From Candidatus Woesearchaeota archaeon (lineage in GTDB: Archaea; Nanobdellota; Nanobdellia; Woesearchaeales; JACRKL01), in the NCBI GenBank assembly GCA_016219835.1, contig JACRKL010000128.1:1-32064 (forward strand): 32,064 nucleotides of DNA. The letters are read 5' to 3'. Below, one piece after another: positions 12,192-29,424 of the stretch; position 1 is the first letter of the stretch; every line of letters begins with the position of its first letter. Under the pieces are notes generated by a model. That model saw only the letters and a program-made list of their open reading frames with translations, did not search any database and was not told the DNA's origin. The position numbers and the translations under genes are program-made.

Positions 12192-13229
12192 ATGAAAGAA
12201 ATACTCCGCCGTTTTGCTGATGATCTTCGTGCTTCTCCACAGCAGGGCGAACGTATCTTCTTTGGTAATGCTACCTATGACGGCTTGGAAATCAGCAGCA
12301 GCAATTTCCATACGCTTTCTCTCCGCGATTCTGGGATTGGATCTACTCCTCGTATTGCCTTTGTTGACGGCGGCAATCAGGAGCTGTTGGGCGGCGCAAA
12401 TTTCTCCCTGCAACTGATGCGCATCGCTGCCTGCGTCTTCCAGCATGACCAATGCATAGAACGAAAAATGGTGGAATTTCTGTTATACTGCCATGCCACT
12501 AAAAGCAAGAGCCTGATCTATACTGCACATCCATCGATTCTGCAGGGTAACTTTTCTCTGGCATCCTGCGAAGTTGATCCGTTTGATCCTGCTCTCCGGC
12601 AAGGTCACTTTCGTATGCCGATCTCACGCATGGGTGATCTCTTTCGCCGAAGGGCAGAATTGCAGATGGCAGAATCAATGCTCTCTACGCTCCGCAAGGG
12701 TGATCTTCTGTTGCTGGATGGTCAGTTGCAAGAGAACATTGCGTACGATGATACCTACCCTCGTTTGCTCACTGCAACTGCAATGCAGCAGAATATTTTG
12801 CTTACCGCACTTGCAAAAACAGACACCTTGCTCACTGAAAACGGCAAGAGTGTTTCTTCCCTTCTGCAGCAGATGGCTCCTTCGGGTGCATGGTACTATC
12901 ATCCGTGTGCAGCTTGTCAACCTACGCAACCGGATACTGCATTTGTGAAACTTCATCCAAAGGCGACGCATCTTTTTCGCCTTGAGTTTCTTCATGACCA
13001 GCCGTTGCAGCAGATCGCACTGCTCCTTGCATCCCATGCTCATGACCCTGTCTTTTTGGGCTATCCCTATGGCATGATTGCAGCAGATCAACTCGCCAGA
13101 ATTACCAACCATGATGCGGCATTCATGAAAACGAAAGTCCTGATTTCTCTGGGAAAAGATGCTCAACATCTTGGCTCAGCCCTCGCTGCACAGGATGCCC
13201 ACAGCGTGCTCGATCACATCCGTTTCTAG
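12192..13229 (+). CDS. NurA-like 5'-3' nuclease domain protein
   Basis: RIAFVDGGNQ, GDLLLLDGQL, GYPYGMIAADQLARI and AHSVLD resemble the acidic and DGS/L-type motifs and the C-terminal YP...A..LA motif of NurA. ACATAAAAAC lies 22-31 nt upstream of the ATG. Confidence 0.55.
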   Translation: MKEILRRFADDLRASPQQGERIFFGNATYDGLEISSSNFHTLSLRDSGIGSTPRIAFVDGGNQELLGGANFSLQLMRIAACVFQHDQCIERKMVEFLLYCHATKSKSLIYTAHPSILQGNFSLASCEVDPFDPALRQGHFRMPISRMGDLFRRRAELQMAESMLSTLRKGDLLLLDGQLQENIAYDDTYPRLLTATAMQQNILLTALAKTDTLLTENGKSVSSLLQQMAPSGAWYYHPCAACQPTQPDTAFVKLHPKATHLFRLEFLHDQPLQQIALLLASHAHDPVFLGYPYGMIAADQLARITNHDAAFMKTKVLISLGKDAQHLGSALAAQDAHSVLDHIRF

Positions 13230-13366
13230 GGGTTCATTCTCTCTTGAACTGCAACAACAAGGAATATTATCAACAAGAGATATTCCTCTAAGAATATTTC
13301 TGCCATGAATATTTTTAAACGCTGATGATCTTCTGGAGTCTCAAGAGTTATCCTTGGAGGGAAACC

Positions 13367-14524
13367 ATGAACGACGTCTATTTTATAACTTCGGAAAGTG
13401 TTACGGAAGGTCATCCCGATAAAATCTGTGACCAAGTCAGCGATGGCATCCTTGACGAATTGTATAAGCAGGATCCTTATTCTCGCGTTGCTGTGGAAAC
13501 CTTGACGACGACTGGCTTAGTCATGGTCGCCGGTGAAGTTACCACCAAAGGGTTTGTCGATGTGCAGAAAGTGGTACGAGATACATTGCGCGCTATTGGC
13601 TACACTGACCCTGGCTACGGCATTGATTGCGAAGATGCCGGTGTCTTGGTAAGCATCCATGAACAGTCTCCGGATATTGCACAAGGCGTAGATGAAAGCA
13701 AAGACAAAGAGCAAGGGGCAGGCGATCAGGGTATGATGTATGGCTTTGCATGCGATGAAACTCCGGAACTCATGCCTCTTCCGATTATGCTCTCACACCG
13801 CTTGACTCGGCGCTTGTCTGAAGTTCGTAAAAACGGCACGCTTCCGTATCTTGGTCCTGATGGCAAAAGCCAGGTTTCTGTTGAGTACCACCATGGCAAG
13901 CCCGTGCGTGTTGATGCCGTTGTTATTGCAGCACAGCATCGTGAAGAAATTAATTTAGAACAGGTGCGCAGAGACATTCTTCGAGAAGTTATCAAGCCCG
14001 TGTGCGGAACATTGCTCGATGCAAATACAAAACTCCACATCAATGCAACGGGTAAGTTCGTCATCGGTGGTCCACAAGGCGATACGGGAGTAACAGGACG
14101 TAAGATCATTGTCGATACCTATGGTGGTGTCGGCAGGCATGGCGGCGGTGCTTTCTCGGGGAAAGATCCAACGAAAGTGGACAGAAGCGGAGCGTACATG
14201 GCACGCTATATTGCCAAGAATATTGTTGCTGCCAACCTTGCCAGTAAGTGTGAAGTGCAATTGTCCTATGCAATAGGCGTTGCCCAACCTACTTCGGTCA
14301 ACGTTGATTGTTTTGGAACTGCAAAAATCCCTGAAGCAAAGATGGCGGAACTCGTTCGAAAGCATTTCTCCCTCACGCCAAAAGGAATTATTGATTCCCT
14401 GAACTTGAGGCGTCCGATCTATAAAAAATCAGCATCCTACGGTCATTTCGGACGGCATGAAGAAGAATTCACTTGGGAGAAATGTGACAAGGCAGAAGCC
14501 CTGAAGAGAGACAGCGGGTTGTAA
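13367..14524 (+). CDS. metK: S-adenosylmethionine synthetase, bacterial/eukaryotic MetK type
   Basis: [19 protein letters not shown] and [16 protein letters not shown]. The start is at ATG 13367, with GGAGG 6 nt upstream. Confidence 0.95.
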
Positions 14525-15191: not shown

Positions 15192-15536
15192 TTACGATCT
15201 TTCAACGATCTTCATCTGGTCTATGAGCACTTCTTTCTTGCCCCTATTGTTGGAGACTCTTCCGGTGACCTCTACAGTATCTCCTTGTTGCACTTCCAGC
15301 TGATCAAACGCAACAGCTTCACTCACGCAAGCATGCTGCACCGTTAGCTGTGTTGTTCCCGTCGTATGCTTGACATCTAGAATCACTCCGTGAAGCCTTA
15401 CCATCTCTTGGTCGTCAGCAAGCTGAATCATCTTCTCCGGCAGCGGTACGAGAGCAGAGATGATTATGATCAGGGCAATGCCGATGATGCACAGAATCAT
15501 ACTAAGTTGAAGAAGCGTATTATCTGTCATTTCCAT
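15192..15536 (-). CDS. membrane-anchored OB-fold protein (hypothetical)
   Basis: An N-terminal TM helix (LLQLSMILCIIGIALIIIISALV) is followed by about 70 aa resembling tRNA_anti-like OB folds (VRLHGVILDV...GDTVEVTGRV). Confidence 0.55.
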   Translation of the reverse strand: MEMTDNTLLQLSMILCIIGIALIIIISALVPLPEKMIQLADDQEMVRLHGVILDVKHTTGTTQLTVQHACVSEAVAFDQLEVQQGDTVEVTGRVSNNRGKKEVLIDQMKIVERS

Positions 15537-15566
15537 CTCTCGGTTATCGGTGCATGCCTTAAAAAA

Positions 15567-15760
15567 GATCTCGACAGAAAATCTGAAAATCCTTCGGATT
15601 TCGTCAGAGCCTGCCGAAAGGGCTCTGTAGAAAGTCTCGCTATCGCTCGACTGAGCAGCTCAAAACCTTCGCTTCTGCTTTCTAATAATCGACATTCCCC
15701 GTAAGGGGCATCCCGATGCATCTACGCTCCGGTTTTTGACGAGAAAATCACAAGATAGAG
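15567..15760. repeat. cluster of degenerate fragments of the MITE termini
   Basis: Three fragments resemble the MITE ends. At 15567-15611, GATCTCGACAGAAAATC...GGATTTCGTCAGAGCC forms an inverted mini-pair. At 15621-15640, GGCTCTGTAGAAAGTCTCGC resembles the 5' end GGCTCTGACGAAAATCACGC. At 15731-15760, GGTTTTTGACGAGAAAATCACAAGATAGAG resembles the 5' end plus the CGCAAGATGCGAG hairpin. Confidence 0.45.
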
Positions 15761-15762
15761 AT

Positions 15763-16581
15763 TCACTCAAACACCATCCCCCGCGCATCTTTTCCTTCCA
15801 TTATACCAACAACATGATGATCTTTCAGAGTCAACGTTCCGTTCTCGTGAAGTTGCTGTACTATAGGAGAAGATTGATCCACCATAAAAGAAGTGTACCT
15901 AAAACGACCAGCTGCATATGTACCTTTGAAGAGAAAAATACCCTTGTCGGAGTATACAGCAAGTGTACGAAGATGGATTTCCATGGATCTAGACACTCGG
16001 GGATCATCCTCATGGATCAGCTGAAGCCTTCTTTCAGCCATCTTCAAAGACTCATTGCAATGAAACGAACATGGGCAATGGCTCAACGTCGGGAAATCAA
16101 AGTACCGCCCGAAAATGTTCATGGGGAAAGGAGCAGTATCTCCTACCGTGTTGTCAAAAGCAGGAAGCACAAAGTCGTTGTTCTTTTGCTCTTCTTGCTG
16201 ATGATGCTTCTTAAAGAATGAGCAACAGCATGATGGATAACCCAGAACGTTGCCCAAGCCAAGATGATCCTGCCGTTGTTCCAGAAAAGCAGCACGATCG
16301 GCATCCTCTTTTGTGAGAGATGCATAGAACAGCTGCGACGTCTGCTTGTTCTGTTCTCTGGGAATCAGATAGCCTTTGCTTGAATACCCGCCACTTGACG
16401 AAGATCCGACTGCCGCTCCCCAGCAGAACGCAATTTTGTTTGAGGTACAATAGTTCTCAACACCTTTCTGAAGGTGCTCCGGAATGATCATCCTTGCAAC
16501 GGGTTTTATTCCTGCAAGCACTTCCATAATCTCAAACGCCCTGCTCTGGTTGCCAAAGACCTGCATCAGATAAGGAATCAT
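15763..16581 (-). CDS. hypothetical Cys-motif protein (GYPSCCCSFF ... SHCPCSFHC)
   Basis: 272-aa ORF. Minus-strand CTATTTAAG (16603-16611) lies 22-30 nt upstream of the ATG. Clustered Cys/His motifs suggest metal binding. Any resemblance to archaeal DUF483-type GYPxCC proteins is a vague recollection only. Confidence 0.55.
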   Translation of the reverse strand: MIPYLMQVFGNQSRAFEIMEVLAGIKPVARMIIPEHLQKGVENYCTSNKIAFCWGAAVGSSSSGGYSSKGYLIPREQNKQTSQLFYASLTKEDADRAAFLEQRQDHLGLGNVLGYPSCCCSFFKKHHQQEEQKNNDFVLPAFDNTVGDTAPFPMNIFGRYFDFPTLSHCPCSFHCNESLKMAERRLQLIHEDDPRVSRSMEIHLRTLAVYSDKGIFLFKGTYAAGRFRYTSFMVDQSSPIVQQLHENGTLTLKDHHVVGIMEGKDARGMVFE

Positions 16582-16625
16582 AGGTACTCAAGAGGATGAT
16601 TACTTAAATAGATGATGTCTGCACT

Positions 16626-16789
16626 GGCTCTGGTGAAAATCTCGCAAGATGCGAGGTTCTGCCATCGGTTCGCATGGTTTCTGGGTATTCTGCTAGCGGA
16701 AATTCCCATTGGAATTCCCTTTCCGCCTGAATGGTTTATGCTACTGATGCTCACATGAGGATGGCAGAACTGACATTTTCACCGGAGCC
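16626..16789. mobile_element. MITE-like non-autonomous element, copy A (164 bp)
   Basis: The terminal inverted repeats are GGCTCTGGTGAAAAT (16626-16640) and ATTTTCACCGGAGCC (16775-16789). An inner pair is GTTCTGCCATC (16656-16666) and GATGGCAGAAC (16760-16770). It is flanked by the perfect 9-bp direct repeat GTCTGCACT (16617-16625 and 16790-16798). It has no ORF, and its ends are homologous to copy B. Confidence 0.8.
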
Positions 16790-17177
16790 GTCTGCACTTA
16801 GAAATATGCAACGCCGGTGCGATGATACTGCCCTCGATCATGCACCAGAGGAAAAGCAAGCCCAGAGCTAATGAAAAGAGAAGTGTTGATGACAGCATCA
16901 GACAGAGAACAAAGAAGACAAGTACACGAACTCGAGAGAAAAAACGCTGCATGATGATCTGCAAGCCAAAAGCAAGAAGCACTGCTGCAGGAAGCGGTGC
17001 CATGGTAGAAAAAAAGGACATCAGAAGGGCAAACGTGATACCGTGACTTGTGAAACGAAGGTACGACATTCCATAAGCAATCTCTTCATGAGCAAGCAAG
17101 GCAAGCACGACCCCAGTTATCACCCCTAAACCTGTAGAAAACAAGATAATCAAAACAACGAAGAGTAAGGAAGTCAT
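16779..17177 (-). CDS. small multi-TM membrane protein (hypothetical); 3' end rewritten by MITE copy A
   Basis: The start is taken at ATG 17177 (MTSLLFVVLI...), with AGTATATAATTTTTAC 21-36 nt upstream. The last 3 codons and the stop (16779-16790) come from the MITE. Confidence 0.5.
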   Translation of the reverse strand: MTSLLFVVLIILFSTGLGVITGVVLALLAHEEIAYGMSYLRFTSHGITFALLMSFFSTMAPLPAAVLLAFGLQIIMQRFFSRVRVLVFFVLCLMLSSTLLFSLALGLLFLWCMIEGSIIAPALHISKCRRLR

Positions 17178-17287
17178 ACGTTCATGCCAATATGCTAGTA
17201 TATAATTTTTACCTTCGAGGTAATGACAATATTTATAAAGAGGTTTCTCTTCAATCAAGATTAATTGTCACAGAGGGGGGGTTTAGA

Positions 17288-18079
17288 ATGGCATTTTCCA
17301 AAACGTTTCTTGACGACGTCAAGAGAAAATTTGATTTGAATATTTATGAAGCAAAGATATGGACTGCTTTGCTTTCCAGGGGCATTGCATCTGCAGGGAC
17401 ATTGTCTGAGATTTCTAATGTGCCAAGATCAAGGAGCTACGACGTTCTTGAGAGTTTAGAAAAGAAAGGATTTGTGATTATGAAATTAGGAAAGCCGATC
17501 AACTACATTGCCGTTCCTCCGGAAGAAGTCGTCAAGCGCATGAAGCAGGAAATTAAGAAGCATGCAGAACAGCATGCAGAGACATTGCAGACGATCAAGG
17601 AGATGGATGTCTTTTCCGAGCTGGAATTGCTCTACAAGAACGGCATCGAACACATTGATCCGACCGATATGAGCGGCGCAGTTGTGGGAAGAGAAGCGAT
17701 TACTGCTTTTGTCAAGCATGCGATGCGCGATGCTAAAAAAAGTATTACCATTGTAACGACAAAAAATGCGTTCACCCGAAAAGTTAGCATGCTCAAGAGC
17801 GCGTACAAAAAAGCAGGCAACAAGAGCATCAAGATTACGTTTGTTGGACCAGTGGATGGAAGAGCAGAGCATATCCTCAAGTCTATGTCAGCTAATGTAG
17901 CAGTGCACAGTCATGACAAGATCAAAGGAAGGTTTATCATCATCGACAACGAACTGATGATCTTCATGATGTACGACAGCCAGAAGGATTTGCATCCGAG
18001 CTATGAAGTAGCGATCTGGACCAAAGCACCGTTCTTCGTGAAGTCGTTTGAGAATTTAGTGCATCTGGCGGCGAAGTAG
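17288..18079 (+). CDS. TrmB family transcriptional regulator
   Basis: N-terminal wHTH: LNIYEAKIWTALLSRGIASAGTLSEISNVPRSRSYDVLESLEKKGFV, then the coiled linker and C-terminal domain typical of TrmB. ATG 17288 has a G-rich SD at 17273-17280 and ATATTTATAAAG at 17229-17240. Confidence 0.8.
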   Translation: MAFSKTFLDDVKRKFDLNIYEAKIWTALLSRGIASAGTLSEISNVPRSRSYDVLESLEKKGFVIMKLGKPINYIAVPPEEVVKRMKQEIKKHAEQHAETLQTIKEMDVFSELELLYKNGIEHIDPTDMSGAVVGREAITAFVKHAMRDAKKSITIVTTKNAFTRKVSMLKSAYKKAGNKSIKITFVGPVDGRAEHILKSMSANVAVHSHDKIKGRFIIIDNELMIFMMYDSQKDLHPSYEVAIWTKAPFFVKSFENLVHLAAK

Positions 18080-19346: not shown

Positions 19347-20084
19347 TTACTTTTTCGCGATCTTCCAGAGAAACATAAAGTGGTCGATATAGCTCTGCGC
19401 TATTTGTCTATTCTCTAGGATTATGGTCGTGAAAGGTTTTGTAAAATCAACAAGAAACACTTTGCTTCCTGCGATCATCGTCCTTACCGGTGCAATAAAC
19501 TCCGAAGGCAAATATCTAATCTCTGCATGCGGCTGTTGTTGTCGATGACCTTGAGCAAAAATAAGCAGCGTCTTGAGCTTGTGTTTCTTTTCAGCGTCAA
19601 AGAATGCTTTAAGGTCATGAGGGAAAAATTGAACAAAGGGATTTTCCTGCGTTCCATAACCATAATTGTACCCTGTTTCTTTGCTTCCTTCTGCAAGCTC
19701 TTTGAGCACTATTTGTGGTCCCTGATTGCCAAGATACATTCTAACGTTGCTATGCTCTGACTTGTTTGCCTGTTTTGCTTTGATAACTGAGATAAGAGCA
19801 ACCATTTCCTGCTGCGCATCTTGAATTTCAATCTTCTTCTCCTCAAGAAAGTCAACAAGACGCTCAGGCGGCGTTGCTTGGTAGTGTCTAACACCTTCTT
19901 TTTCAATAAAGCTAGCAAGACCCTTATTCAGCAGTTTTTGGAGAACATCATAAACTTTCGAACTCGCAAGGTTTGATCTCTTGATGATCGCGCCTGCCTT
20001 AGTCTCACCAGACTCAATAAGCAGTTCGTAGATCTCGCTCTCTCCCTTGGTAAGCCCAATCTTGTGCAGTTTTTCTTTAATCAT
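19347..20084 (-). CDS. TrmB family transcriptional regulator (paralog of 28690..29424)
   Basis: LTKGESEIYELLIESGETKAGAIIKRSNLASSKVYDVLQKLLNKGLASFIEKEGVRHYQATPPERL. The start is trimmed to ATG 20084, with AATTATATAAATG 19-31 nt upstream. Confidence 0.8.
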   Translation of the reverse strand: MIKEKLHKIGLTKGESEIYELLIESGETKAGAIIKRSNLASSKVYDVLQKLLNKGLASFIEKEGVRHYQATPPERLVDFLEEKKIEIQDAQQEMVALISVIKAKQANKSEHSNVRMYLGNQGPQIVLKELAEGSKETGYNYGYGTQENPFVQFFPHDLKAFFDAEKKHKLKTLLIFAQGHRQQQPHAEIRYLPSEFIAPVRTMIAGSKVFLVDFTKPFTTIILENRQIAQSYIDHFMFLWKIAKK

Positions 20085-20172
20085 AAAGGAAGAGATATCC
20101 TGAATTATATAAATGTTCTCCATTAAGGGGGGAGTAATATTTATATCCCAGATACCATTACTCAATAACAAC

Positions 20173-21234
20173 ATGGCAGATGAAGAACATATTCAGAGTA
20201 TAGAATCTTGGCTTAGAAGACTCATAGGACGACCTCTGCGAGAAAGAAATCAGGCAGCATATCATGAGTATAGAAAGCAACATAAAAGTGAGATAGGTAC
20301 GACGCTCCTATCTGATGACCTCATGAGCAGATGTAGTGGGTATGGTTCCATCTTTGAATCCATTATCCCAACGGATAAGATAGATCACTTTTATCATATC
20401 CCTAACTATCTCTGGCAAAAGCATATAACTGAAGGTACACCACTTGAAAAGCTTGTCCCTGAGAAAGCAGCTGCCATCCTGGAAGAAGTTGGAGATAACC
20501 TTGAGAGAAAACTCAGCCTTGATTGGGATCTTGCTGCTACGCACGCGCTTCTTGAGAATAACTTTTTCAGCCTTGTAGGGTATAAACAGTTTGTTGAAGG
20601 GTCATTTCCTCTAAGAGTAGATACCAGATATCGGGAACTAAATATCCCGTTTCATGAGTTTGTCTGGCACTCTTTTCTGTTTGCATCGCAGAGCGGCGGA
20701 ATCTATTACTGGAAACCTAGGGAGGCTGTTTGTCTAAAGGTTAGCGAATTTGATGAATACGAGAAGGACATAACAGCTATGCCAACAACATGGAACATGC
20801 TAAAAGCGGATGAATATGATAGAGAAAGGCGCCTTCTTAGAGAGATGATGTTTGTTCCGCTTGAGTCTGAACTAGATAAGCTGTGCCTTGAATTAACAGG
20901 TCCTGTTACAAAGCAAGGAAGAATGTTAGTGATAAAAACACTTGAGAGGCTGAACTTTGAAGAGGAAAATCAAAGACCGGTAGCTGTCGAAGAAGGTAAA
21001 GATAGTTTTTCAGGAAGAGATCTGTTGGTTATGAAATATGACAAGAGTCCTTATCCAACAAGACCTGGTGATGCAACTGATTTTCAAATACTCTATAAGC
21101 AGCCAATAGGCAAAGGTAACCCACTCTCTATTAGAAACGCTGATCCAAGATGTGGTTATGATGGTATAATGGATATCAGAGAGAGTAAGCTTATTGGTGA
21201 TAGAGCTATCCCATATCAGGGATGGGAGTTTTGA
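20173..21234 (+). CDS. hypothetical protein (353 aa)
   Basis: The start is at ATG 20173, with AATATTTATAT 27-37 nt upstream. It is divergent from the TrmB gene. No family recognised. Confidence 0.55.
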   Translation: MADEEHIQSIESWLRRLIGRPLRERNQAAYHEYRKQHKSEIGTTLLSDDLMSRCSGYGSIFESIIPTDKIDHFYHIPNYLWQKHITEGTPLEKLVPEKAAAILEEVGDNLERKLSLDWDLAATHALLENNFFSLVGYKQFVEGSFPLRVDTRYRELNIPFHEFVWHSFLFASQSGGIYYWKPREAVCLKVSEFDEYEKDITAMPTTWNMLKADEYDRERRLLREMMFVPLESELDKLCLELTGPVTKQGRMLVIKTLERLNFEEENQRPVAVEEGKDSFSGRDLLVMKYDKSPYPTRPGDATDFQILYKQPIGKGNPLSIRNADPRCGYDGIMDIRESKLIGDRAIPYQGWEF

Positions 21235-21292: not shown

Positions 21293-23875
21293 CTAAAGCT
21301 CCTTCTTCCCTTTCTTCAGCTCAATCTTCGCCAATACCATCTCATGCATCCTGCGCAGGAATTCAACTTTCTCCTCGATCTTGATCACATCGGTAAATCC
21401 CTGGACATACAGGTTGAAAGCGAATGGACTGGGAATTTGTGTCGTAATTTCCGTTAGCGTGATATCCCCAGATTCAATGTTAGTAAGTACCTCTTGTGCA
21501 TGAGGCAAGTCCATGAGATCATTAAGCACTTCTCTTCTTGCTTCTTTCAAGATGGGGAATTGTTCTGAAATTCTTCTCACGGCAGCCAAGAGTAACTGTG
21601 AGCTGACTTGTTGCATGCCTACACGCTTGCGATGGCCACGGTAATTGCGGAGGATCATTAATGCTCTTCCAGCACAATGTCGGAATCTTCGCTTTAAGAT
21701 TTCCGTTTTATCGAGGGCAAGTTCCATCGTGCCACGAAGTTCGTTTGCTTTGAGCATTTGCAATGCTTTTTTTGCATCAACCCTGCTCTCCGAAGCGATG
21801 GAAAAGCCGTGGTCATTAATCCCGATTTCCACATCACGGTGCTGCATTCTTGCAATCGCAAAAGCAACAGCTCTTGCCAACACGTCATTAACTCTTCTGC
21901 CATAGAGCGCATGGAAAAAATAATACTCTCTGCCTTTCTCCTCCTCAAAATGCTCGATGAGCATGTTTTTATCGTTGGGAATAACAGCATAGGCAAACTG
22001 CTCTTTCATGTAATCATAGAGTGCATGGGCGCTGTTCTGATCTGCATAGACATAGCGGTTTATGAAGGCAAGGATTTCCTCCTCGGTCTCTCCTGCGGTA
22101 AATTTTTCACGCAGCAATCTTCGGAATTTGCCGATGTCGAGAGCAAGGTCATAACTCAACGGCAACATCTCACTTGCCCATGACGGAATCGTTGGAGGTC
22201 TCATGACTGAAGCGGTAACTTGTGCAACCATACCTCTGGCAAATTGAAATTCATATTTCTCTCCGCCCAAGACAAAGACATCTCCGCGTTTTAAGCGTTC
22301 GAGAAATGCTTCATCAATATGACCTACGGCATGATCGCCTACTTTGACGGTGATAAATGATTCATCCGGAATCGTCCCCACATTCGTCATGTACATTACT
22401 CTGCTCATCATGCCTTTCTTTCCGATCTTTCCTTCATTGCGCCAGATTTTTGCATAGACATGACGATCTTCCAGCGATGCATACGCACCGGAAAGATAGT
22501 CCAAGATTTCGTTAAATGTCTGCTTGGAGAGACCCTGATAGCAGTAGCTTCTCCGCAAGACGCCAAGCAAGAGATCTTCATCCCACACTTGCTCAATGGC
22601 CATACCAAAAATCTGCTGTGCTAAGACATCAAGGCTGCTTTTCGGAATGTTGATGCGGTCTATTTTTTGTTCTAGCGCGTTCTTGAGCAGGACGCTGCAT
22701 TCGACGAGATCATCGCGATCAAGCACGATGATTCTTCCTTTTGCAACTTCATGCAGCTTGTGACCACTTCTGCCAATGCGCTGCAAGCATCGGGCAATGC
22801 TCTTTGGACTACCCAAGAGAATGACGAGATCAATAAAACCGATGTCAATGCCTAACTCCAGCGAGGTTGAAGTTACCACCACTTTCAGCTTACCCTGACG
22901 CAAGCTGTCCTCGATGTGGTATCTTGTTTCTTTGGAAAGGCTGCCGTGATGCGCACCGATATTTTCCAGGTATTTTGCCGGGAACTTTTCTTTAAGATGG
23001 TTAACGACACGCTCGGTTGCAGCTCTGGTGTTCGTGAAGATAAGCGTTGTTTTATGTTCTTGAATCAGTGAGTCAATCATCTCATACATCTTGCGATGCA
23101 ACGTTTCATGCGGCGTATCAATAATGTTGGAGACGGGACAGAGCACTTGGAGATCCATCTTCTTGATGAACTTGACATCGATGAGATCGCAGGGACGATC
23201 AACACCAACCAAGAAACGAGCGACTTCATCTAAGGGAGAGACAGTAGCACTCAACCCAATTCTGCACATGCCCTGCGAGTGAAAATGCAAACGCTCGAGA
23301 CTGAGTGAGAGATGGACACCTCGCTTGTTTTCTGCTAAGGCGTGCACTTCATCGACAATGCACCATTCGACCTGCTTCAAGTTTTCAATAAATTTGCTGC
23401 TGCTGAGCATGATTGCCAAGCTTTCAGGAGTCGTGATGAGAATGTGTGGCGGTTTTTTGAGCATGGCAGATTTTTCTGACGCTGATGTATCACCCGTTCT
23501 GGTTGCAACGCGAATGCCTAATGGTTTGCCGGCGAGCTCTTCCATTTCTTTTAAGGGAGTGGTAAGGTTGACTTCAATATCCCGAGAGAGTGCTTTAAGT
23601 GGATTAACATAAACACAATAGACTTTGTTCTCGAGAGCATTACGCTCGGAGAGACCGATGAGCTCATTGAGGATCGCTCCAAACGCACACAAGGTCTTAC
23701 CACTGCCCGTCGGAGCGCTGACTAAGGTGTTGATCCTGCAATGGACGTTATACATGGCATAGCGCTGCGGCTCGCTGAGCTCTTTAAACTTGTTGAAGAA
23801 CCACTTCCTGAACAACGACTGCATCATGCCTTTGGTCAGATTATCATCATGTGGCTCAGTTAAGAGGCGGATCAT
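21293..23875 (-). CDS. lhr: Lhr-like large ATP-dependent helicase
   Basis: APTGSGKT (motif I), VDEVH (II), LSAT (III) and QRIGRSGH (VI), plus a long C-terminal Lhr/DEAD-associated region. The start is set at ATG 23875 (M57 of the track ORF) for two reasons. GTTTAAAAGC lies 21-30 nt upstream of it, and the longer ORF reads into MITE copy B. ATG 23827 is an alternative start. Confidence 0.85.
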   Translation of the reverse strand: MIRLLTEPHDDNLTKGMMQSLFRKWFFNKFKELSEPQRYAMYNVHCRINTLVSAPTGSGKTLCAFGAILNELIGLSERNALENKVYCVYVNPLKALSRDIEVNLTTPLKEMEELAGKPLGIRVATRTGDTSASEKSAMLKKPPHILITTPESLAIMLSSSKFIENLKQVEWCIVDEVHALAENKRGVHLSLSLERLHFHSQGMCRIGLSATVSPLDEVARFLVGVDRPCDLIDVKFIKKMDLQVLCPVSNIIDTPHETLHRKMYEMIDSLIQEHKTTLIFTNTRAATERVVNHLKEKFPAKYLENIGAHHGSLSKETRYHIEDSLRQGKLKVVVTSTSLELGIDIGFIDLVILLGSPKSIARCLQRIGRSGHKLHEVAKGRIIVLDRDDLVECSVLLKNALEQKIDRINIPKSSLDVLAQQIFGMAIEQVWDEDLLLGVLRRSYCYQGLSKQTFNEILDYLSGAYASLEDRHVYAKIWRNEGKIGKKGMMSRVMYMTNVGTIPDESFITVKVGDHAVGHIDEAFLERLKRGDVFVLGGEKYEFQFARGMVAQVTASVMRPPTIPSWASEMLPLSYDLALDIGKFRRLLREKFTAGETEEEILAFINRYVYADQNSAHALYDYMKEQFAYAVIPNDKNMLIEHFEEEKGREYYFFHALYGRRVNDVLARAVAFAIARMQHRDVEIGINDHGFSIASESRVDAKKALQMLKANELRGTMELALDKTEILKRRFRHCAGRALMILRNYRGHRKRVGMQQVSSQLLLAAVRRISEQFPILKEARREVLNDLMDLPHAQEVLTNIESGDITLTEITTQIPSPFAFNLYVQGFTDVIKIEEKVEFLRRMHEMVLAKIELKKGKKEL

Positions 23876-23943
23876 GGAAGAATAATGCTGATGCAGTTTA
23901 AAAGCATTATGGGGGCGGTTGACCAGTGGAAGAACAACAAAGA

Positions 23944-24158
23944 GGCTCTGACGAAAATCACGCAAGATGCGAGGTTCTGCCATCGGTTCGCATGATTTAG
24001 GGTTCATTTGCTGGCGAGAATTCTTGCGAAGCAAGTGTATCACTCGAGCTGACCTTAGTCCTCGAGTGATTTCACCTCTGGAACACCCTTCTCGCTCAAA
24101 CCGATTCTTCTAAGAATGCTCACAGAAGGATGGCAGAACTAACATTTTCGTCAGAGCC
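23944..24158. mobile_element. MITE-like non-autonomous element, copy B (215 bp)
   Basis: The perfect 15-bp terminal inverted repeats are GGCTCTGACGAAAAT (23944-23958) and ATTTTCGTCAGAGCC (24144-24158). The inner pair is GTTCTGCCATC / GATGGCAGAAC. It is flanked by the perfect 9-bp direct repeat CAACAAAGA (23935-23943 and 24159-24167). About 50 nt at the 5' end and about 45 nt at the 3' end are homologous to copy A. The centre differs from copy A and is rich in hairpins. Confidence 0.8.
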
Positions 24159-24209
24159 CAACAAAGAAAAAGGATTATATAGATAACACATTAATGGTTA
24201 TAACAAAAC

Positions 24210-25610
24210 ATGACACCGTCAACACGTGCTTCAGGGATAATCGCTGCATGCCAGAAGATCCAGAAGGCCTGCAGGGTTCTCTTGATACTAGAGAAGAGAT
24301 CGTTGGCAAAGAGCGAGCTCGTGGTGAAGAATGCAACGGCATTGTTGGATGTTGCACCGACAGGAGTTTTCTCTTGGGCATTTCAGGGCAAACAAAGAGC
24401 ATCAGACAAGGAGCGGATCTTTGAGGAAGTTGAGAAAGAACTGCAAAATCTGGGTACTATCCTTGAACTCCAGAATAAGTATCTCCTTATGGATTTTGGA
24501 AATGACACGGAAGAGGAAACTGTCCAATGGATACTCTCCCTTCCACTGCTCCATTCAGTTATAAACTCGCATGATGACAAGGAATTGCTTGAAGAGATCG
24601 TCTATAAGCATCCAGAAACAATCCGGCGCATTCTTGCCTGCCTTATGGAACACAAAGAGAAAGTTATGGCACAGGAAGCAGCAGCAAATCTGTTGTTCCG
24701 CCAGCTGAAAGAAATAGAAGAGAGATTCCGCAAGAGCCAAAATTATTTTCGGTTTGCCGAGCTGGAAGAGACAAGGAAGCAAGAAGTTACTGCTTGCGTG
24801 CAGTCGTTTCAAGAGCATTTTAAGCAGCTGGACAGGTTCGAGCATGAGCATCCGCTGGACGGGGCATCCTTCCGTCTCGGAGAGATGGCGAGGGAAGCTT
24901 CAAGAATCGTTGCTGAGAATCGGGAGATAGAACGACTATTTAATCAGAGAGATCTTGCAGAACTCAAGGAGCTGGCAGGACAGCAGGCAAAGAGAGAACA
25001 GGATAAGATTGCCTACTTTAACCGGAAGCTGGAGGAGATGCGACGGCTTCAGCTAAATTTCCGTCCAGAGCAGCTCATTGCAGTGCATGTAACAAACCAT
25101 TTTCCGGAAAACGGAGTTATGAGAACAACTGGCCAGTTTACGGGCAAGATTTTTAGTAACGACAAGCGGTCGAAGGAACGGGAAGTCAAGTTTCCAAGGG
25201 AAACTATTCATTTTTCCCTCAACGGGAAAGTCGGCTCACATGTTTATGGAAACTGGGATTCAGTAAAGTTTGCGGTTCTTATTCCTGTTCATCTGATCAT
25301 GCAGCGGATTGTAAACCTAAATCCGGTTGATACTTATGTTGTTGGAGAATTGAATCTTCCGCATGGAAGTGAGATTATTGCGCGAGAAGAGGATGCGGTA
25401 GGACATCAGTTTGGGAATGCCAAATTTGTTCCGGTTCCGAATGGAAAGGCACTTGAAGAGGTGATTTCATTGCGCATAAAGGAACGCGGGTTTACGCCGA
25501 TGGGTGTTGGGATTGGATTGGTACAGAAGATAAAGGTGTGTTTGAAGCATATGCACGAGCTATCAAGGAAGAAGATGACTCCTTATATGATAAACGTTCT
25601 AGGGGTTTAA
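24210..25610 (+). CDS. large orphan protein, coiled-coil middle plus His-rich C-terminal domain (hypothetical)
   Basis: 466-aa ORF with GATTATATAGAT 26-37 nt upstream. It has a heptad-rich E/K/R/Q middle region, then a C-terminal domain HVTNHFPENG...RETIHFSLNGKVGSHVYGNW. No family recognised. Confidence 0.55.
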   Translation: MTPSTRASGIIAACQKIQKACRVLLILEKRSLAKSELVVKNATALLDVAPTGVFSWAFQGKQRASDKERIFEEVEKELQNLGTILELQNKYLLMDFGNDTEEETVQWILSLPLLHSVINSHDDKELLEEIVYKHPETIRRILACLMEHKEKVMAQEAAANLLFRQLKEIEERFRKSQNYFRFAELEETRKQEVTACVQSFQEHFKQLDRFEHEHPLDGASFRLGEMAREASRIVAENREIERLFNQRDLAELKELAGQQAKREQDKIAYFNRKLEEMRRLQLNFRPEQLIAVHVTNHFPENGVMRTTGQFTGKIFSNDKRSKEREVKFPRETIHFSLNGKVGSHVYGNWDSVKFAVLIPVHLIMQRIVNLNPVDTYVVGELNLPHGSEIIAREEDAVGHQFGNAKFVPVPNGKALEEVISLRIKERGFTPMGVGIGLVQKIKVCLKHMHELSRKKMTPYMINVLGV

Positions 25611-26054: not shown

Positions 26055-26855
26055 TTATTCTTTCCTCTCAAGCGTCCGGTAAACGCTGTACAGTTGGGTG
26101 TACTGATCCCTCGTCATCGTACGCTTTTCAAGCAGCTCGCTCGCTTGGTTTACCAAGGCATGAAGCTCCACCATCGGGCGTTCAACTTGTTCTTTCTGCT
26201 CAACGAGTCCCATGATTTTTGCATCATACGTTGCAATAACGTTTGCTTTCAAGCCGTTTATAGTATGTGGATCAAGGAAGCTGGTATCATTCTTGCTGCT
26301 GTACCGGTGCCTGTTATTGAGGTACTCCTTTACACGTCTTGGATCTCCTGCCTTTCCAAATAGGAAATCATACGACGGAAAAGAAACCTTGTATTTGACG
26401 TCTATCGCTTCCAGATCATGTCCTCTTTGGGTTCTTAACTTATACATATCATTGCAAAGCTGGGCAACCGCCTTCAGTTCGTCAGGGAAGAGTTGCTCAT
26501 ATTCTTTGTCTCCAACATAAGGAATGAAGCGCTGACGCTGATAGGGATTCTCATGGCTGCCGTCGCCAAACAACTGCTGATAATGCTTCTCAACAGCTTC
26601 AGCAAGCTGGGGCTTGCCTAATTCTTTGAACAGGTGACTGATCGTTCTACTCTTCTTAAAGATCCCTTCCTTCTTGTGTTCTTCAAGACTGTTTTCAAGA
26701 TCCATACGTTTCTGCTTGAGTCTCTGCTGCTCTTGGTAACCTACGGAAGCTAATTCCACCACGGGTGCTTCGAGAGCTGCAACTGTAGGTTGTTCCTCTT
26801 GCTTCCCTTCAGATGCTACCGTTGGTTGTTTCCAGGTTTTGCTGAACAAGCTCAT
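26055..26855 (-). CDS. hypothetical protein (266 aa), second gene of a coupled pair
   Basis: Its ATG overlaps the stop of the upstream gene (4-nt overlap at 26852-26855). N-terminal MSLFSKTWK. No family recognised. Confidence 0.55.
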   Translation of the reverse strand: MSLFSKTWKQPTVASEGKQEEQPTVAALEAPVVELASVGYQEQQRLKQKRMDLENSLEEHKKEGIFKKSRTISHLFKELGKPQLAEAVEKHYQQLFGDGSHENPYQRQRFIPYVGDKEYEQLFPDELKAVAQLCNDMYKLRTQRGHDLEAIDVKYKVSFPSYDFLFGKAGDPRRVKEYLNNRHRYSSKNDTSFLDPHTINGLKANVIATYDAKIMGLVEQKEQVERPMVELHALVNQASELLEKRTMTRDQYTQLYSVYRTLERKE

Positions 26856-27889
26856 GGTTTCACCTGATTTGGTTGATACTTTGCAATCGTTGTTCTGATG
26901 AAGTCGAGCGCCTGAACATACGGCTGCTTATACGTTGCTTCAAGCTCACTGAACAAACGCTCATCATCTTCTTTCGTAGATCTCAGGGAAACAAAAGATC
27001 CCTGCTCATTCCACGTCCATTCTTTGCCGTGAGAACCATCAGAGAACAGATGTTGATCCTGAACATCGTCCATGGCGTAAATACTCCAGGGGCAACGATC
27101 AGATGGCTCATCCTTAAACAAGTGTTCAATAGATCGTGCATGATCCAGAACAGCCTCCATCTTTTCCGTAAGCTTGCCATAGTCTCCATAAGGCGCAAAC
27201 TTGAGAATCTCACCAACTTTTTCCAGGACAGCATTCTCCACACCATGCCCATACGCCAAGAGAATGGCGTAGTTGATAGCAGCACTCCATTGCTTGCTTC
27301 CCTTTTCTTCTTCCCATGTATCAAGGTAAGCTTCAATTATTTTTCCGGTGCTGAACCCATAAGTATTACCAGCCATTTTATAGCCCATGTTTGATCGAGC
27401 ATCACGGAATGCTTCATACTGTTCTCCATGATGGTTTCCCGAGGTGTTATACACAAATGGTGTACCAGCATCGTCCAAGAGCTTTCCGAGGTTCAGTGCA
27501 CCATGTGACGTCGGCTGTTCACCTGCTTTCAAAGGAAAGAAAATATCAGACGCCACTGCATGAAATCTCTTTTGCTGAAGATGCTGTTCTGCTTCTTCGT
27601 ACGTTGAAGCAAATGTGAAATTGATGCCGACACACTGCGAAGCAGTACTCTTGGCATCTGCAAGATGCTTGGGGGTGTCTTCGATGATTAGCATCTCCAA
27701 AGAACCTGAGCCAATAGCTAAAGGAGGTGGCACAATTCGGTGGTGTTCTTCTGGTGCTGGCTCTGGGACAGCTGCCTGTGCTGATGCTTTCAAGACATCT
27801 GGAGATGGAGATACCTGAAGCGGTCCTTCTGTTCTCTGCTTCTTCATTCCATATCCAAATATATTCTTCATACTCTGGTATAAGCTCAT
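26852..27889 (-). CDS. hypothetical protein with receiver (REC)-like segment
   Basis: GGAGG lies 7 nt upstream of ATG 27889. LEMLIIEDTPKHLADAK...FTFASTYEEAEQHLQQKRFHAVASDIFFP follows the beta1 acidic pair / beta3 Asp pattern of CheY-like receivers. The remaining roughly 220 aa are unrecognised. Confidence 0.5.
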   Translation of the reverse strand: MSLYQSMKNIFGYGMKKQRTEGPLQVSPSPDVLKASAQAAVPEPAPEEHHRIVPPPLAIGSGSLEMLIIEDTPKHLADAKSTASQCVGINFTFASTYEEAEQHLQQKRFHAVASDIFFPLKAGEQPTSHGALNLGKLLDDAGTPFVYNTSGNHHGEQYEAFRDARSNMGYKMAGNTYGFSTGKIIEAYLDTWEEEKGSKQWSAAINYAILLAYGHGVENAVLEKVGEILKFAPYGDYGKLTEKMEAVLDHARSIEHLFKDEPSDRCPWSIYAMDDVQDQHLFSDGSHGKEWTWNEQGSFVSLRSTKEDDERLFSELEATYKQPYVQALDFIRTTIAKYQPNQVKP

Positions 27890-28046: not shown

Positions 28047-28307
28047 ATGGCAGAAGTCAAAACCATTAAAGGGATAGACGATGCAAGCTGGTCGGAGTTT
28101 AAGTCACTTGCAGCTCAACACAAAAAGAACATGGGCGAGTTCTTTGGTGACTTGCTTGCGGCATACAAAGCAAGAGAAGTTCGCAGATTTTGGGACGATA
28201 TTCTTACCATTGAACATCGGCTAAGCAAAGAGGCAGCAGATGAAATTCGAAAAACAGTAGCTACTCTCCGCAAAGAGGATGGGTTCAGGGAGACTCTATG
28301 GCATTGA
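28047..28307 (+). CDS. vapB: antitoxin of the VapBC pair (putative RHH/VapB-like)
   Basis: 86 aa, immediately upstream of the PIN gene and overlapping it by 10 nt. The N-terminal IKGIDDASWSEFKSLAAQHKKNMGEFFGDLL resembles a ribbon-helix-helix fold. Confidence 0.65.
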   Translation: MAEVKTIKGIDDASWSEFKSLAAQHKKNMGEFFGDLLAAYKAREVRRFWDDILTIEHRLSKEAADEIRKTVATLRKEDGFRETLWH

Positions 28308-28693
28308 TCCTGGATACCTCTATTCTCATCGATATTGAACAAGAAGTTCCGGAAACGTTACACGCTTTAGCAGAAATTGTGCGCTATGAGCAACATCCTG
28401 CAAGCATCAGTTTCATGAGCTACTTTGAATTTCTCTATGGCTTGAGGAACCAGTCCTATCAAGTCAAACAGGAGAAAACTGCTTGGCTGAGGAAGTTTTT
28501 GTGCCTTGAAGCGGGGCTTCACACTGCTGAAATTCTTGCTGAACTGAGGCAGCGCTATGCGACAAAAGGGAAACCTTTACCTCTTGCAGATATGATCATT
28601 GCCGCTCAGACAAAGGAACACCACCTCACGTTGGTAACCAAAGATAAACTGTTTGACAAGATCGAAGAGATAAAGGCGATAGTGATCACATGA
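28298..28693 (+). CDS. vapC: PIN-domain ribonuclease toxin VapC
   Basis: MALILDTSILID (first catalytic Asp), FEFLYG, LADMIIAA and TKDKLF together give the PIN acidic quartet pattern. 131 aa. Confidence 0.85.
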   Translation: MALILDTSILIDIEQEVPETLHALAEIVRYEQHPASISFMSYFEFLYGLRNQSYQVKQEKTAWLRKFLCLEAGLHTAEILAELRQRYATKGKPLPLADMIIAAQTKEHHLTLVTKDKLFDKIEEIKAIVIT

Positions 28694-29424
28694 ACATCTC
28701 CATCCTTGAAGACATTGGATTAACAAATGCAGAGATCAAAGTATATCTCGCACTTCTGGAAATTGGAAGCTCAACTGCTGGCCCTATCATCGAGAAAAGT
28801 CAACTCCAAAGTTCTGTCGTGCACATGACGCTGAACAAGCTGGTTGAGAAAGGATTGCTCTCGTTTGTCAAAGAAGGTCAGAGAAAGCATTATCAGGCAG
28901 CAAATCCTCAGCACATTACCGATTACCTTGACGAGAAAAAGAAACGCTTCGAACAAATTCTTCCCGAGCTGATGCTGAAGCAAGAACTCGCAAAGCAAAA
29001 ATCTGAGGTGATTGCGTTCAAAGGAATTAAGGGTATTAAGGAACTTCTGCTAGAGCTTCTGGAAGCTGGAGGATCTGAGCATCATACCTTTGGCTCCAGC
29101 AGTGTGTCGCTGATGATCAACGATGCATGGTGGGTTAACTACCACAAAAAACGAGCAGAGAAAGGCATTACTGCAAAACTGTTGTTCAACGCATCGCTGG
29201 TATCGTGGAAAGCTGAATCAAAATATCCAAAGTCCGAAGTGCGCTATACCAAAGCAGGATTTGAACCACTAACGGAAACCATTATCCGTAATGACAAGAT
29301 AGGCATCATCATCTGGACAGAAAAACCCATGGGCACATTAATCCACAGCAAGGAAGCTGCTGATTCGTATGAGCAGTTCTTTCAAATGCTATGGGGTAGA
29401 GCTAACACCACCAAGAAAAAATAA
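28690..29424 (+). CDS. TrmB family transcriptional regulator
   Basis: LTNAEIKVYLALLEIGSSTAGPIIEKSQLQSSVVHMTLNKLVEKGLLSFVKEGQRKHYQAANPQHI. Its ATG overlaps the vapC TGA (ATGA at 28690-28693). It has the same architecture as 19347..20084. Confidence 0.8.
   Translation: MNISILEDIGLTNAEIKVYLALLEIGSSTAGPIIEKSQLQSSVVHMTLNKLVEKGLLSFVKEGQRKHYQAANPQHITDYLDEKKKRFEQILPELMLKQELAKQKSEVIAFKGIKGIKELLLELLEAGGSEHHTFGSSSVSLMINDAWWVNYHKKRAEKGITAKLLFNASLVSWKAESKYPKSEVRYTKAGFEPLTETIIRNDKIGIIIWTEKPMGTLIHSKEAADSYEQFFQMLWGRANTTKKK

Follow-up and report, generated by a model that had tools for sequence, protein, structure and literature searches.

MITEAba12 of Acinetobacter baumannii is 113 bp long and is mobilised by ISAba12, an IS903-like member of the IS5 family (PMC6382973). 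ISAba12-type elements are ~1040 bp in size, generate a 9-bp duplication, and end in the repeats GGCTTTGTTGCACAAA (PMC6382973 Table 2). The archaeal MITEs that have been reviewed come from Sulfolobus, Halobacterium, and Haloquadratum walsbyi (PMC10969869), while those of DPANN archaea, Woesearchaeal ones included, were catalogued in bulk in a 2024 census, in which one Woesearchaeal genome ranks with the most MITE-dense of the archaea (PMC11602168). Among the bacterial elements with a strong secondary structure, QMITE2 of Coxiella is known by direct repeats of 7-9 bp and terminal repeats of 23-29 bp (PMC10969869).

The window analysed here is a stretch of 32,064 nucleotides from a Candidatus Woesearchaeota archaeon (contig JACRKL010000128.1). 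The contig is a housekeeping stretch, with genes for aIF5A, eIF6, SRP54, prefoldin, PRPP synthetase, MetK, an Lhr-type helicase, TrmB-family regulators, and a PIN domain protein. Three TrmB-family regulator genes (17192-18079, 19347-20174, and 28690-29424) lie within 12 kb, the last of them adjoining the PIN-domain gene (28298-28693), and neither Pfam nor NCBIfam gave a match for several ORFs of 180-470 aa (e.g., 24210-25610, 20113-21234, 12192-13229, and 26852-27889). The S-adenosylmethionine synthetase encoded at 13325-14524 shows the S-AdoMet_synt_N/M/C Pfam domains, which we take to be those of the bacterial/eukaryotic and not of the archaeal MetK type; in an otherwise archaeal-looking contig this may reflect gene acquisition, which is frequent in DPANN. 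A TATA-like box lies ~24-31 nt upstream of the ATG in most genes of the window, a spacing expected for archaeal leaderless or short-leader transcripts.

Two full copies of a short element, of 164 and 215 bp, are readable as DNA in this window. In all probability they represent a MITE family moved in trans, whose parent is most likely an IS903-group-like element of the IS5 family.

Two complete copies and their insertion sites

The initial annotation described an inverted-repeat element of 164 bp, bordered by a perfect 9-bp target-site duplication and interrupting the gene of a membrane protein at its 3' end. Both the element and its duplication are found in the DNA as it had drawn them, with paired termini and a perfect inner pair, and a BLAST search with the element against the window revealed a second, longer copy. 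The features of the two loci are as follows:

16626..16789, + strand: copy 1 of the putative MITE, 164 bp, no coding capacity
16626-16640: left terminal repeat of copy 1, GGCTCTGGTGAAAAT
16641-16655: small hairpin of copy 1
16656-16666 and 16760-16770: inner inverted pair of copy 1, GTTCTGCCATC and GATGGCAGAAC, perfectly complementary
16775-16789: right terminal repeat of copy 1, ATTTTCACCGGAGCC
16617..16625: left 9-bp target-site duplication of copy 1, GTCTGCACT, abutting the terminus and identical to 16790-16798
16790..16798: right 9-bp target-site duplication of copy 1, GTCTGCACT
16779..17258, - strand: hydrophobic (membrane-like) ORF of 159 aa, its last three codons and TGA coming from the right end of copy 1
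16603..16611, - strand: TATA-like box of gene 15763-16581(-), CTATTTAAG, 24-31 nt upstream of the ATG
23944..24158, + strand: copy 2 of the putative MITE, 215 bp
23935..23943: left 9-bp target-site duplication of copy 2, CAACAAAGA
24159..24167: right 9-bp target-site duplication of copy 2, CAACAAAGA
24174..24182, + strand: TATA-like box of gene 24210-25610(+), ATTATATAG

The terminal inverted repeats of copy 1 pair at 14 of 15 positions and are 89% complementary when followed over 18 nt. At a fixed position, an exact 9-mer repeat would arise by chance with a probability of ~4e-6 per copy. A generic scan for terminal inverted repeats with a flanking duplication of at least 7 bp returned nothing from 20 shuffled windows, and from the window itself it returned no other element of this kind. 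The structure of copy 1 is therefore far beyond chance, given that the shuffled windows are empty and that copy 2 has a perfect 9-bp duplication of its own.

The ORF interrupted by copy 1 (16779-17258, minus strand) has no Pfam or NCBIfam match. At present it ends ...HISKCRRLR, and its TGA (16779-16781) sits inside the right terminus of the element, so that the stop codon is indeed, as claimed at the outset, donated by the insertion. Removal of 16626-16798 in silico yields a minus-strand ORF of 161 aa which ends ...HISKCRHHLFK with TAA at 16600-16602, exactly the restored frame that had been predicted. Copy 1 would thus have entered the gene of a small membrane protein within its final five codons, replacing HHLFK by RLR and a new stop. 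In the reconstructed pre-insertion arrangement, the end of this ORF, with its final codons and TAA (16600-16602), abutted the TATA-like box of the next gene (16603-11) and overlapped the region just upstream, which indicates a very compact genome. The box itself, which had been noted as lying a few bp from the insertion, is present, with 14 nt (the 9-bp duplication and 5 nt) between it and the left end of copy 1.

Copy 2 starts and ends with the GGCTCTG/CAGAGCC-type motif of copy 1 and is flanked by a different perfect 9-mer, CAACAAAGA, which occurs nowhere else in the window; on both points, shared boundaries and one duplication per copy, it behaves as the initial annotation had proposed for a further copy. 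Its terminal repeats pair at 15 of 15 positions (GGCTCTGACGAAAAT and ATTTTCGTCAGAGCC), the inner inverted pair is the same as in copy 1, and a 34-nt core (23961-23994), CGCAAGATGCGAGGTTCTGCCATCGGTTCGCATG, is identical in the two copies. Copy 2 carries in addition an apical segment of 51 bp, absent from copy 1. As this segment has no flanking repeat of its own, it seems to be a length variant of the apex and not an insertion within the element. The region of this segment (23994-24075) comprises two extra hairpins, TTGCGAAGCAA and GTGTATCACTCGAG...CTCGAGTGAT.

Copy 2 is placed between divergent promoters, that of the Lhr-type helicase gene, whose TATA box is 40 nt from its left end, and that of the 466-aa ORF 24210-25610(+), whose box is separated from its right end by the duplication and 6 nt. 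The Lhr-type helicase ORF, as delimited mechanically (21293-24043, minus strand), begins at a GTG 56 codons into copy 2; the true start of this gene is probably the ATG at 23875.

The copies are thus consistently found upstream of, and close to, core promoters, at 14-15 nt from the TATA boxes in the case of copies 1 and 2. Owing to the duplication, the sequence of the 14 nt upstream of each TATA box is unchanged, which leaves the core promoters intact. The promoter-side position may reflect either a choice of target or the persistence, in a compact genome, of those insertions that do no harm.

Further copies and an independent assembly

A search for additional copies at the protein level, with the six concatenated reading frames of copy 1 as the query, gave a single database match, P0015, a protein of 194 aa annotated as 'hypothetical protein HZB02_02455 [Candidatus Woesearchaeota archaeon]' and encoded on a 9.8-kb contig. 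Of its first 35 residues, 33 match the minus-strand translation of copy 1, and the remainder of the protein is unrelated. The match reads out through the left terminus (...ARFSPE corresponds to ...TTTTCACCAGAGCC), and the similarity ends no more than one codon from the GGCTCTG terminus, the boundary expected from copies 1 and 2. Judged from the translation of this chimeric ORF, through which it is known, it is a third copy, of the copy-1 subtype and with the same boundary, on another Woesearchaeota contig. It precedes the first plausible ATG of the neighbouring gene by 52 nt. P0015 used as a query returned only itself. The family comprises at least two diverged subfamilies, and the two copies of one subfamily are ~94% identical as protein translation.

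The terminal motif GGCTCYGNNGAAA has six perfect occurrences in the window: copies 1 and 2 account for four with their ends, and a pair of relics for the other two, as follows:

15599..15611, - strand: terminus-like relic GGCTCTGACGAAA (copy-2 type), outer end facing right
15621..15641, + strand: terminus-like relic GGCTCTGTAGAAAGTCTCGC, 17/20 identical to the left end of copy 1, with the perfect motif at 15621-15633

The two relics lie back to back, their outer ends facing each other across 9 nt (TGCCGAAAG), in the order ATTTCGTCAGAGCC, then GGCTCTGTAGAAAGTCTCGC. The 45 bp at 15567-15611 form a small hairpin closed by the left relic and a degenerate second terminus. The left relic (15599-15611) has no flanking duplication, and a right end matching the right relic (15621-15641) is found nowhere in the window. 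Beyond the termini, the similarity of 15537-15762 to the element does not exceed that of shuffled controls, and the fold of this region is unremarkable (z = -0.8). The left relic is probably a degraded mini-copy, and the pair as a whole is read as degraded or truncated relatives of the element: it may consist of two degraded adjacent copies sharing one duplication, or represent the solo end of a third subfamily.

An independent assembly is provided by the Logan contigs of run SRR12113407 (k=31), of which those carrying genes of the window were compared with it. They are 100% identical to the window, and between ~4.5 and 32 kb they are broken at only three sites, in copy 1 (16654/16766), in copy 2 (23990/24129), and at the relic site (15623-15649). 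Position 23990 is exactly k-1 (30 nt) inside the core that copies 1 and 2 have in common, where repeated DNA would be expected to break the assembly. At 24129, the distance to the right end of copy 2 is again exactly 30 nt, as another copy-2-type end elsewhere in the sample would be expected to produce; the remaining break positions are accounted for only roughly. Such breaks are the signature of dispersed repeats. They also show that, as far as the repeat cores, the window has not been mis-assembled.

Further DNA-level searches for copies were made with the invariant 20-mer GGTTCTGCCATCGGTTCGCA in collections of genome, metagenome, and viral contigs; they gave only chance matches, in high-GC bacteria, in which the similarity ends with the 20-mer itself. 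Three scans of the viral contigs with patterns of terminus pairs and right ends gave 0 matches. An empty site would read ...GATGATGTCTGCACT joined to TAGAAATATG... at the copy 1 locus (16600-16810) and ...GAACAACAAAGA joined to AAAAGGATT... at the copy 2 locus (23920-24180). None was found in the 90%-identity clusters of eight ORFs of the window, identified by exact look-up and including six located between 14.5 and 28 kb, as these clusters hold only the sequence of the window or Logan sequence of the same run. The nearest homologues of the adjacent gene come from MAGs of Candidatus Woesearchaeota and show 33-35% identity.

Class, candidate parent, and predicted fold of the element

MITEs are transposase-less elements of about 50-800 bp, a range that includes both 164 and 215 bp. 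The terminal inverted repeats, paired at 14/15 and 15/15 positions, reach the length of at least 10-15 bp typical of the class, the target-site duplications differ between the copies (GTCTGCACT vs CAACAAAGA), and the copies are dispersed and share their boundaries (two full copies in the window, copy 3, and the relic ends). Copies 1 and 2 have stops in all six frames. No transposase was found on the contig with Pfam (30 ORFs), with NCBIfam (10 Pfam-negative ORFs), or in a PDB sequence search with the 466-aa neighbour of copy 2.

In the mechanism proposed here, a DDE-type transposase, presumably encoded elsewhere in the genome, would move the elements in trans by binding the ~15-bp terminal inverted repeats and possibly also the invariant 12-bp inner repeat. 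The ends would then be joined to a target cut with a 9-bp stagger, whose repair would give the 9-bp direct repeats. The anatomy, the duplications, the common boundaries of the copies, the absence of coding capacity, and the restored frame are seen directly, while the transposase, its mode of action, and any effect on expression are inferred, the sequence being compatible with either a cut-and-paste or a copy-out/replicative pathway. An active transposase must be present now, or must have been so recently, as the duplications are perfect, at least two subfamilies exist, and copies within a subfamily are highly similar.

The parent would most likely be an IS903-group-like IS of the IS5 family, in view of ends starting with GGCT.TG.TG and of the 9-bp duplication. 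IS903 makes 9-bp duplications, and the duplication is exactly 9 bp in both readable copies. The IS903 repeat GGCTTTGTTGAATAAATC (18 bp), verified on a real 1057-bp copy, agrees with the left end of copy 1 at 13 of 18 positions, and the termini of the element agree with the ISAba12-type repeats at 10 of 16, both figures coming from a comparison picked after the fact among many IS families. As a lead from these termini, an IS903-group-like parent appears to fit best among the IS groups with 9-bp duplications; a full-length parent element would be expected to be bounded by ends of the pattern GGCTCTGNNGAAAAT.

A MITE of the same kind may have had another parent, from the IS256 (Mutator-like), ISL3, IS1595, or IS1 groups, which we regard as possible, if on the unlikely side. 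Both IS256 and IS1 can give a 9-bp duplication (IS256-type duplications are of 8-9 bp), the ends of ISL3 elements typically begin with GGCTCTT according to the ISfinder family descriptions, and an IS903-like transposase is not among the ORFs of the contig. Nevertheless, ISL3 and IS1595 give 8 bp, not the 9 bp of both readable copies, and the best concrete terminus match is to the IS903-type repeats.

Whatever their parent, both copies are predicted to fold as RNA into a rod with side hairpins, at -70 kcal/mol (z = -6.2) for copy 1 and -92 kcal/mol (z = -7.4) for copy 2, and their folding as DNA gives a similar result. Between copies 1 and 2, substitutions affect 36 of the 164 aligned positions (22%), and all 45 consensus pairs are kept, this comparison being one of two sequences with a consensus structure derived from the same two. 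All 14 differences in paired columns preserve the pairs and none breaks one; they include six double (compensatory) changes, two in the terminal helix, three in the central helix, and one in the small hairpin, as well as two G-U/A-U switches. Random placement of 14 substitutions breaks 10.4 pairs on average and never fewer than two (200,000 trials), while sliding of the pairing partners leaves only 33-46% pairing. The covariation at the termini could follow from the need of a single transposase to accept both ends. That of the central helix goes beyond the recognition of termini and suggests, as a hypothesis, that self-complementarity is maintained as such, in the form of RNA or of single-stranded DNA.

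On these grounds the element could be seen as a mobile module of structured RNA or of single-strand DNA hairpin, in which the rod-like fold is under selection and transposition serves only for spread. Such a module could end transcripts, stabilise them, insulate tightly packed genes from one another, act as a small RNA, or be a substrate recognised by its structure. The persistence of the 45 pairs through 36 differences, with three compensatory changes far from the termini, speaks for it, as do the z-scores of -6 to -7, four G-U pairs favouring the plus strand, and the fact that all copies adjoin promoters or gene ends. Nevertheless, this explanation seems improbable, as the comparison involves two sequences and a structure derived from them, and stable hairpins are general in transcripts of prokaryotic MITEs (PMC10969869). 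Moreover, transcription of copy 1 would use the less stably folding strand, where A.C takes the place of G-U pairs, that of copy 2 is not evident between divergent promoters, and the copies have no conserved internal promoter or oligo-T terminator and no Rfam match. That the fold is selected in a mobile RNA or hairpin-DNA module which DPANN archaea tolerate or exploit directly upstream of core promoters is, as a prediction from folding, decidedly improbable; the element could then be an insulator or terminator between back-to-back genes of a very compact genome, or a protein-binding platform acting via the 34-nt core and its CGCAAGATGCG hairpin.

Movement without staggered cuts, whether of an IS200/IS605-type palindrome-associated element, a REP/BIME, or a casposon derivative, or by site-specific integration into an att site, would agree with the hairpin-rich structure and is nevertheless very unlikely. 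IS200/IS605-type elements and REPs lack terminal inverted repeats with target duplications and have subterminal hairpins only, while the element analysed here has both the repeats and the duplications. An att site would be the same for each copy, and a site-specific attachment site is excluded by the difference between the direct repeats of copies 1 and 2. Casposons generate target duplications of about 14-15 bp.

The last explanation, an immobile non-coding RNA gene or regulatory palindrome with coincidental flanking 9-mers, draws on the very stable predicted structure and the identical 34-nt core, and is effectively refuted by the second duplication: two different perfect 9-mers at the exact termini of two copies (joint chance ~1e-11) exclude coincidence. 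In addition, copy 1 interrupts an ORF that its excision restores, shuffled windows give no combination of terminal repeats and duplication, and the assembly graph breaks at each copy as is typical of dispersed repeats. A known RNA family or tRNA was rejected separately: Rfam 15 gave no match over the window at gathering scores, and no match overlapping 16626-16789 over 15400-16900 at E up to 10, while ARAGORN found no tRNA or tmRNA.

Significance and relation to known elements

Regarded as a MITE family moved in trans, the element shows recent transposition in a small, gene-dense genome of a DPANN archaeon. It also matters for annotation, as it supplies the stop codon of one gene (ORF 16779-17258) and the family creates false N-terminal extensions, both in the Lhr ORF and in P0015 (35 residues), and for genome reconstruction, as it breaks short-read assemblies. 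Only the fold, kept at 22% divergence, and the promoter-proximal positions might repay more work.

The element shares with MITEAba12 and ISAba12 the ~16-bp terminal inverted repeats beginning with GGCT.TG.TG and the 9-bp target-site duplications, and with the former also its small size and non-coding nature; the skeleton common to its termini and the ISAba12-type repeats is GGCT.TG.TG.A.A. Like MITEAba12, it is inserted into or next to genes and, by inference in the present case, is mobilised in trans. The two differ in that their similarity is limited to the terminal skeleton (the 10/16 given above), and in the host, which is here a DPANN archaeon. Moreover, the element is longer (164-215 vs 113 bp), its inner inverted pair is conserved, and an extra hairpin makes one of its ends asymmetric. 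IS903, whose terminal repeat agrees with the left end of copy 1 at the 13/18 positions given above, is distinct in being an element of 1057 bp with its own DDE transposase, whereas the element described here encodes nothing.

The long, rod-like, and very stable predicted hairpin is a feature in common with QMITE2 of Coxiella. The Correia elements of Neisseria, ERIC, and RUP are likewise predicted to form stable rod-like hairpins. These structured bacterial MITEs differ from the present family in that roles in processing, as terminators, or as small RNAs have been shown or proposed for some of them.

With the archaeal MITEs, finally, the element has in common its short length, the lack of coding capacity, the terminal inverted repeats with flanking duplications, the presence in multiple copies, and the mostly intergenic location. 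It differs from them in belonging, by the core search of genome, metagenome, and viral collections, to another sequence family, the sequences catalogued in PMC11602168 lying outside that comparison. As judged from the collections searched with its core, it is a new sequence family of a well-known class of elements, with a mechanism equally well known.
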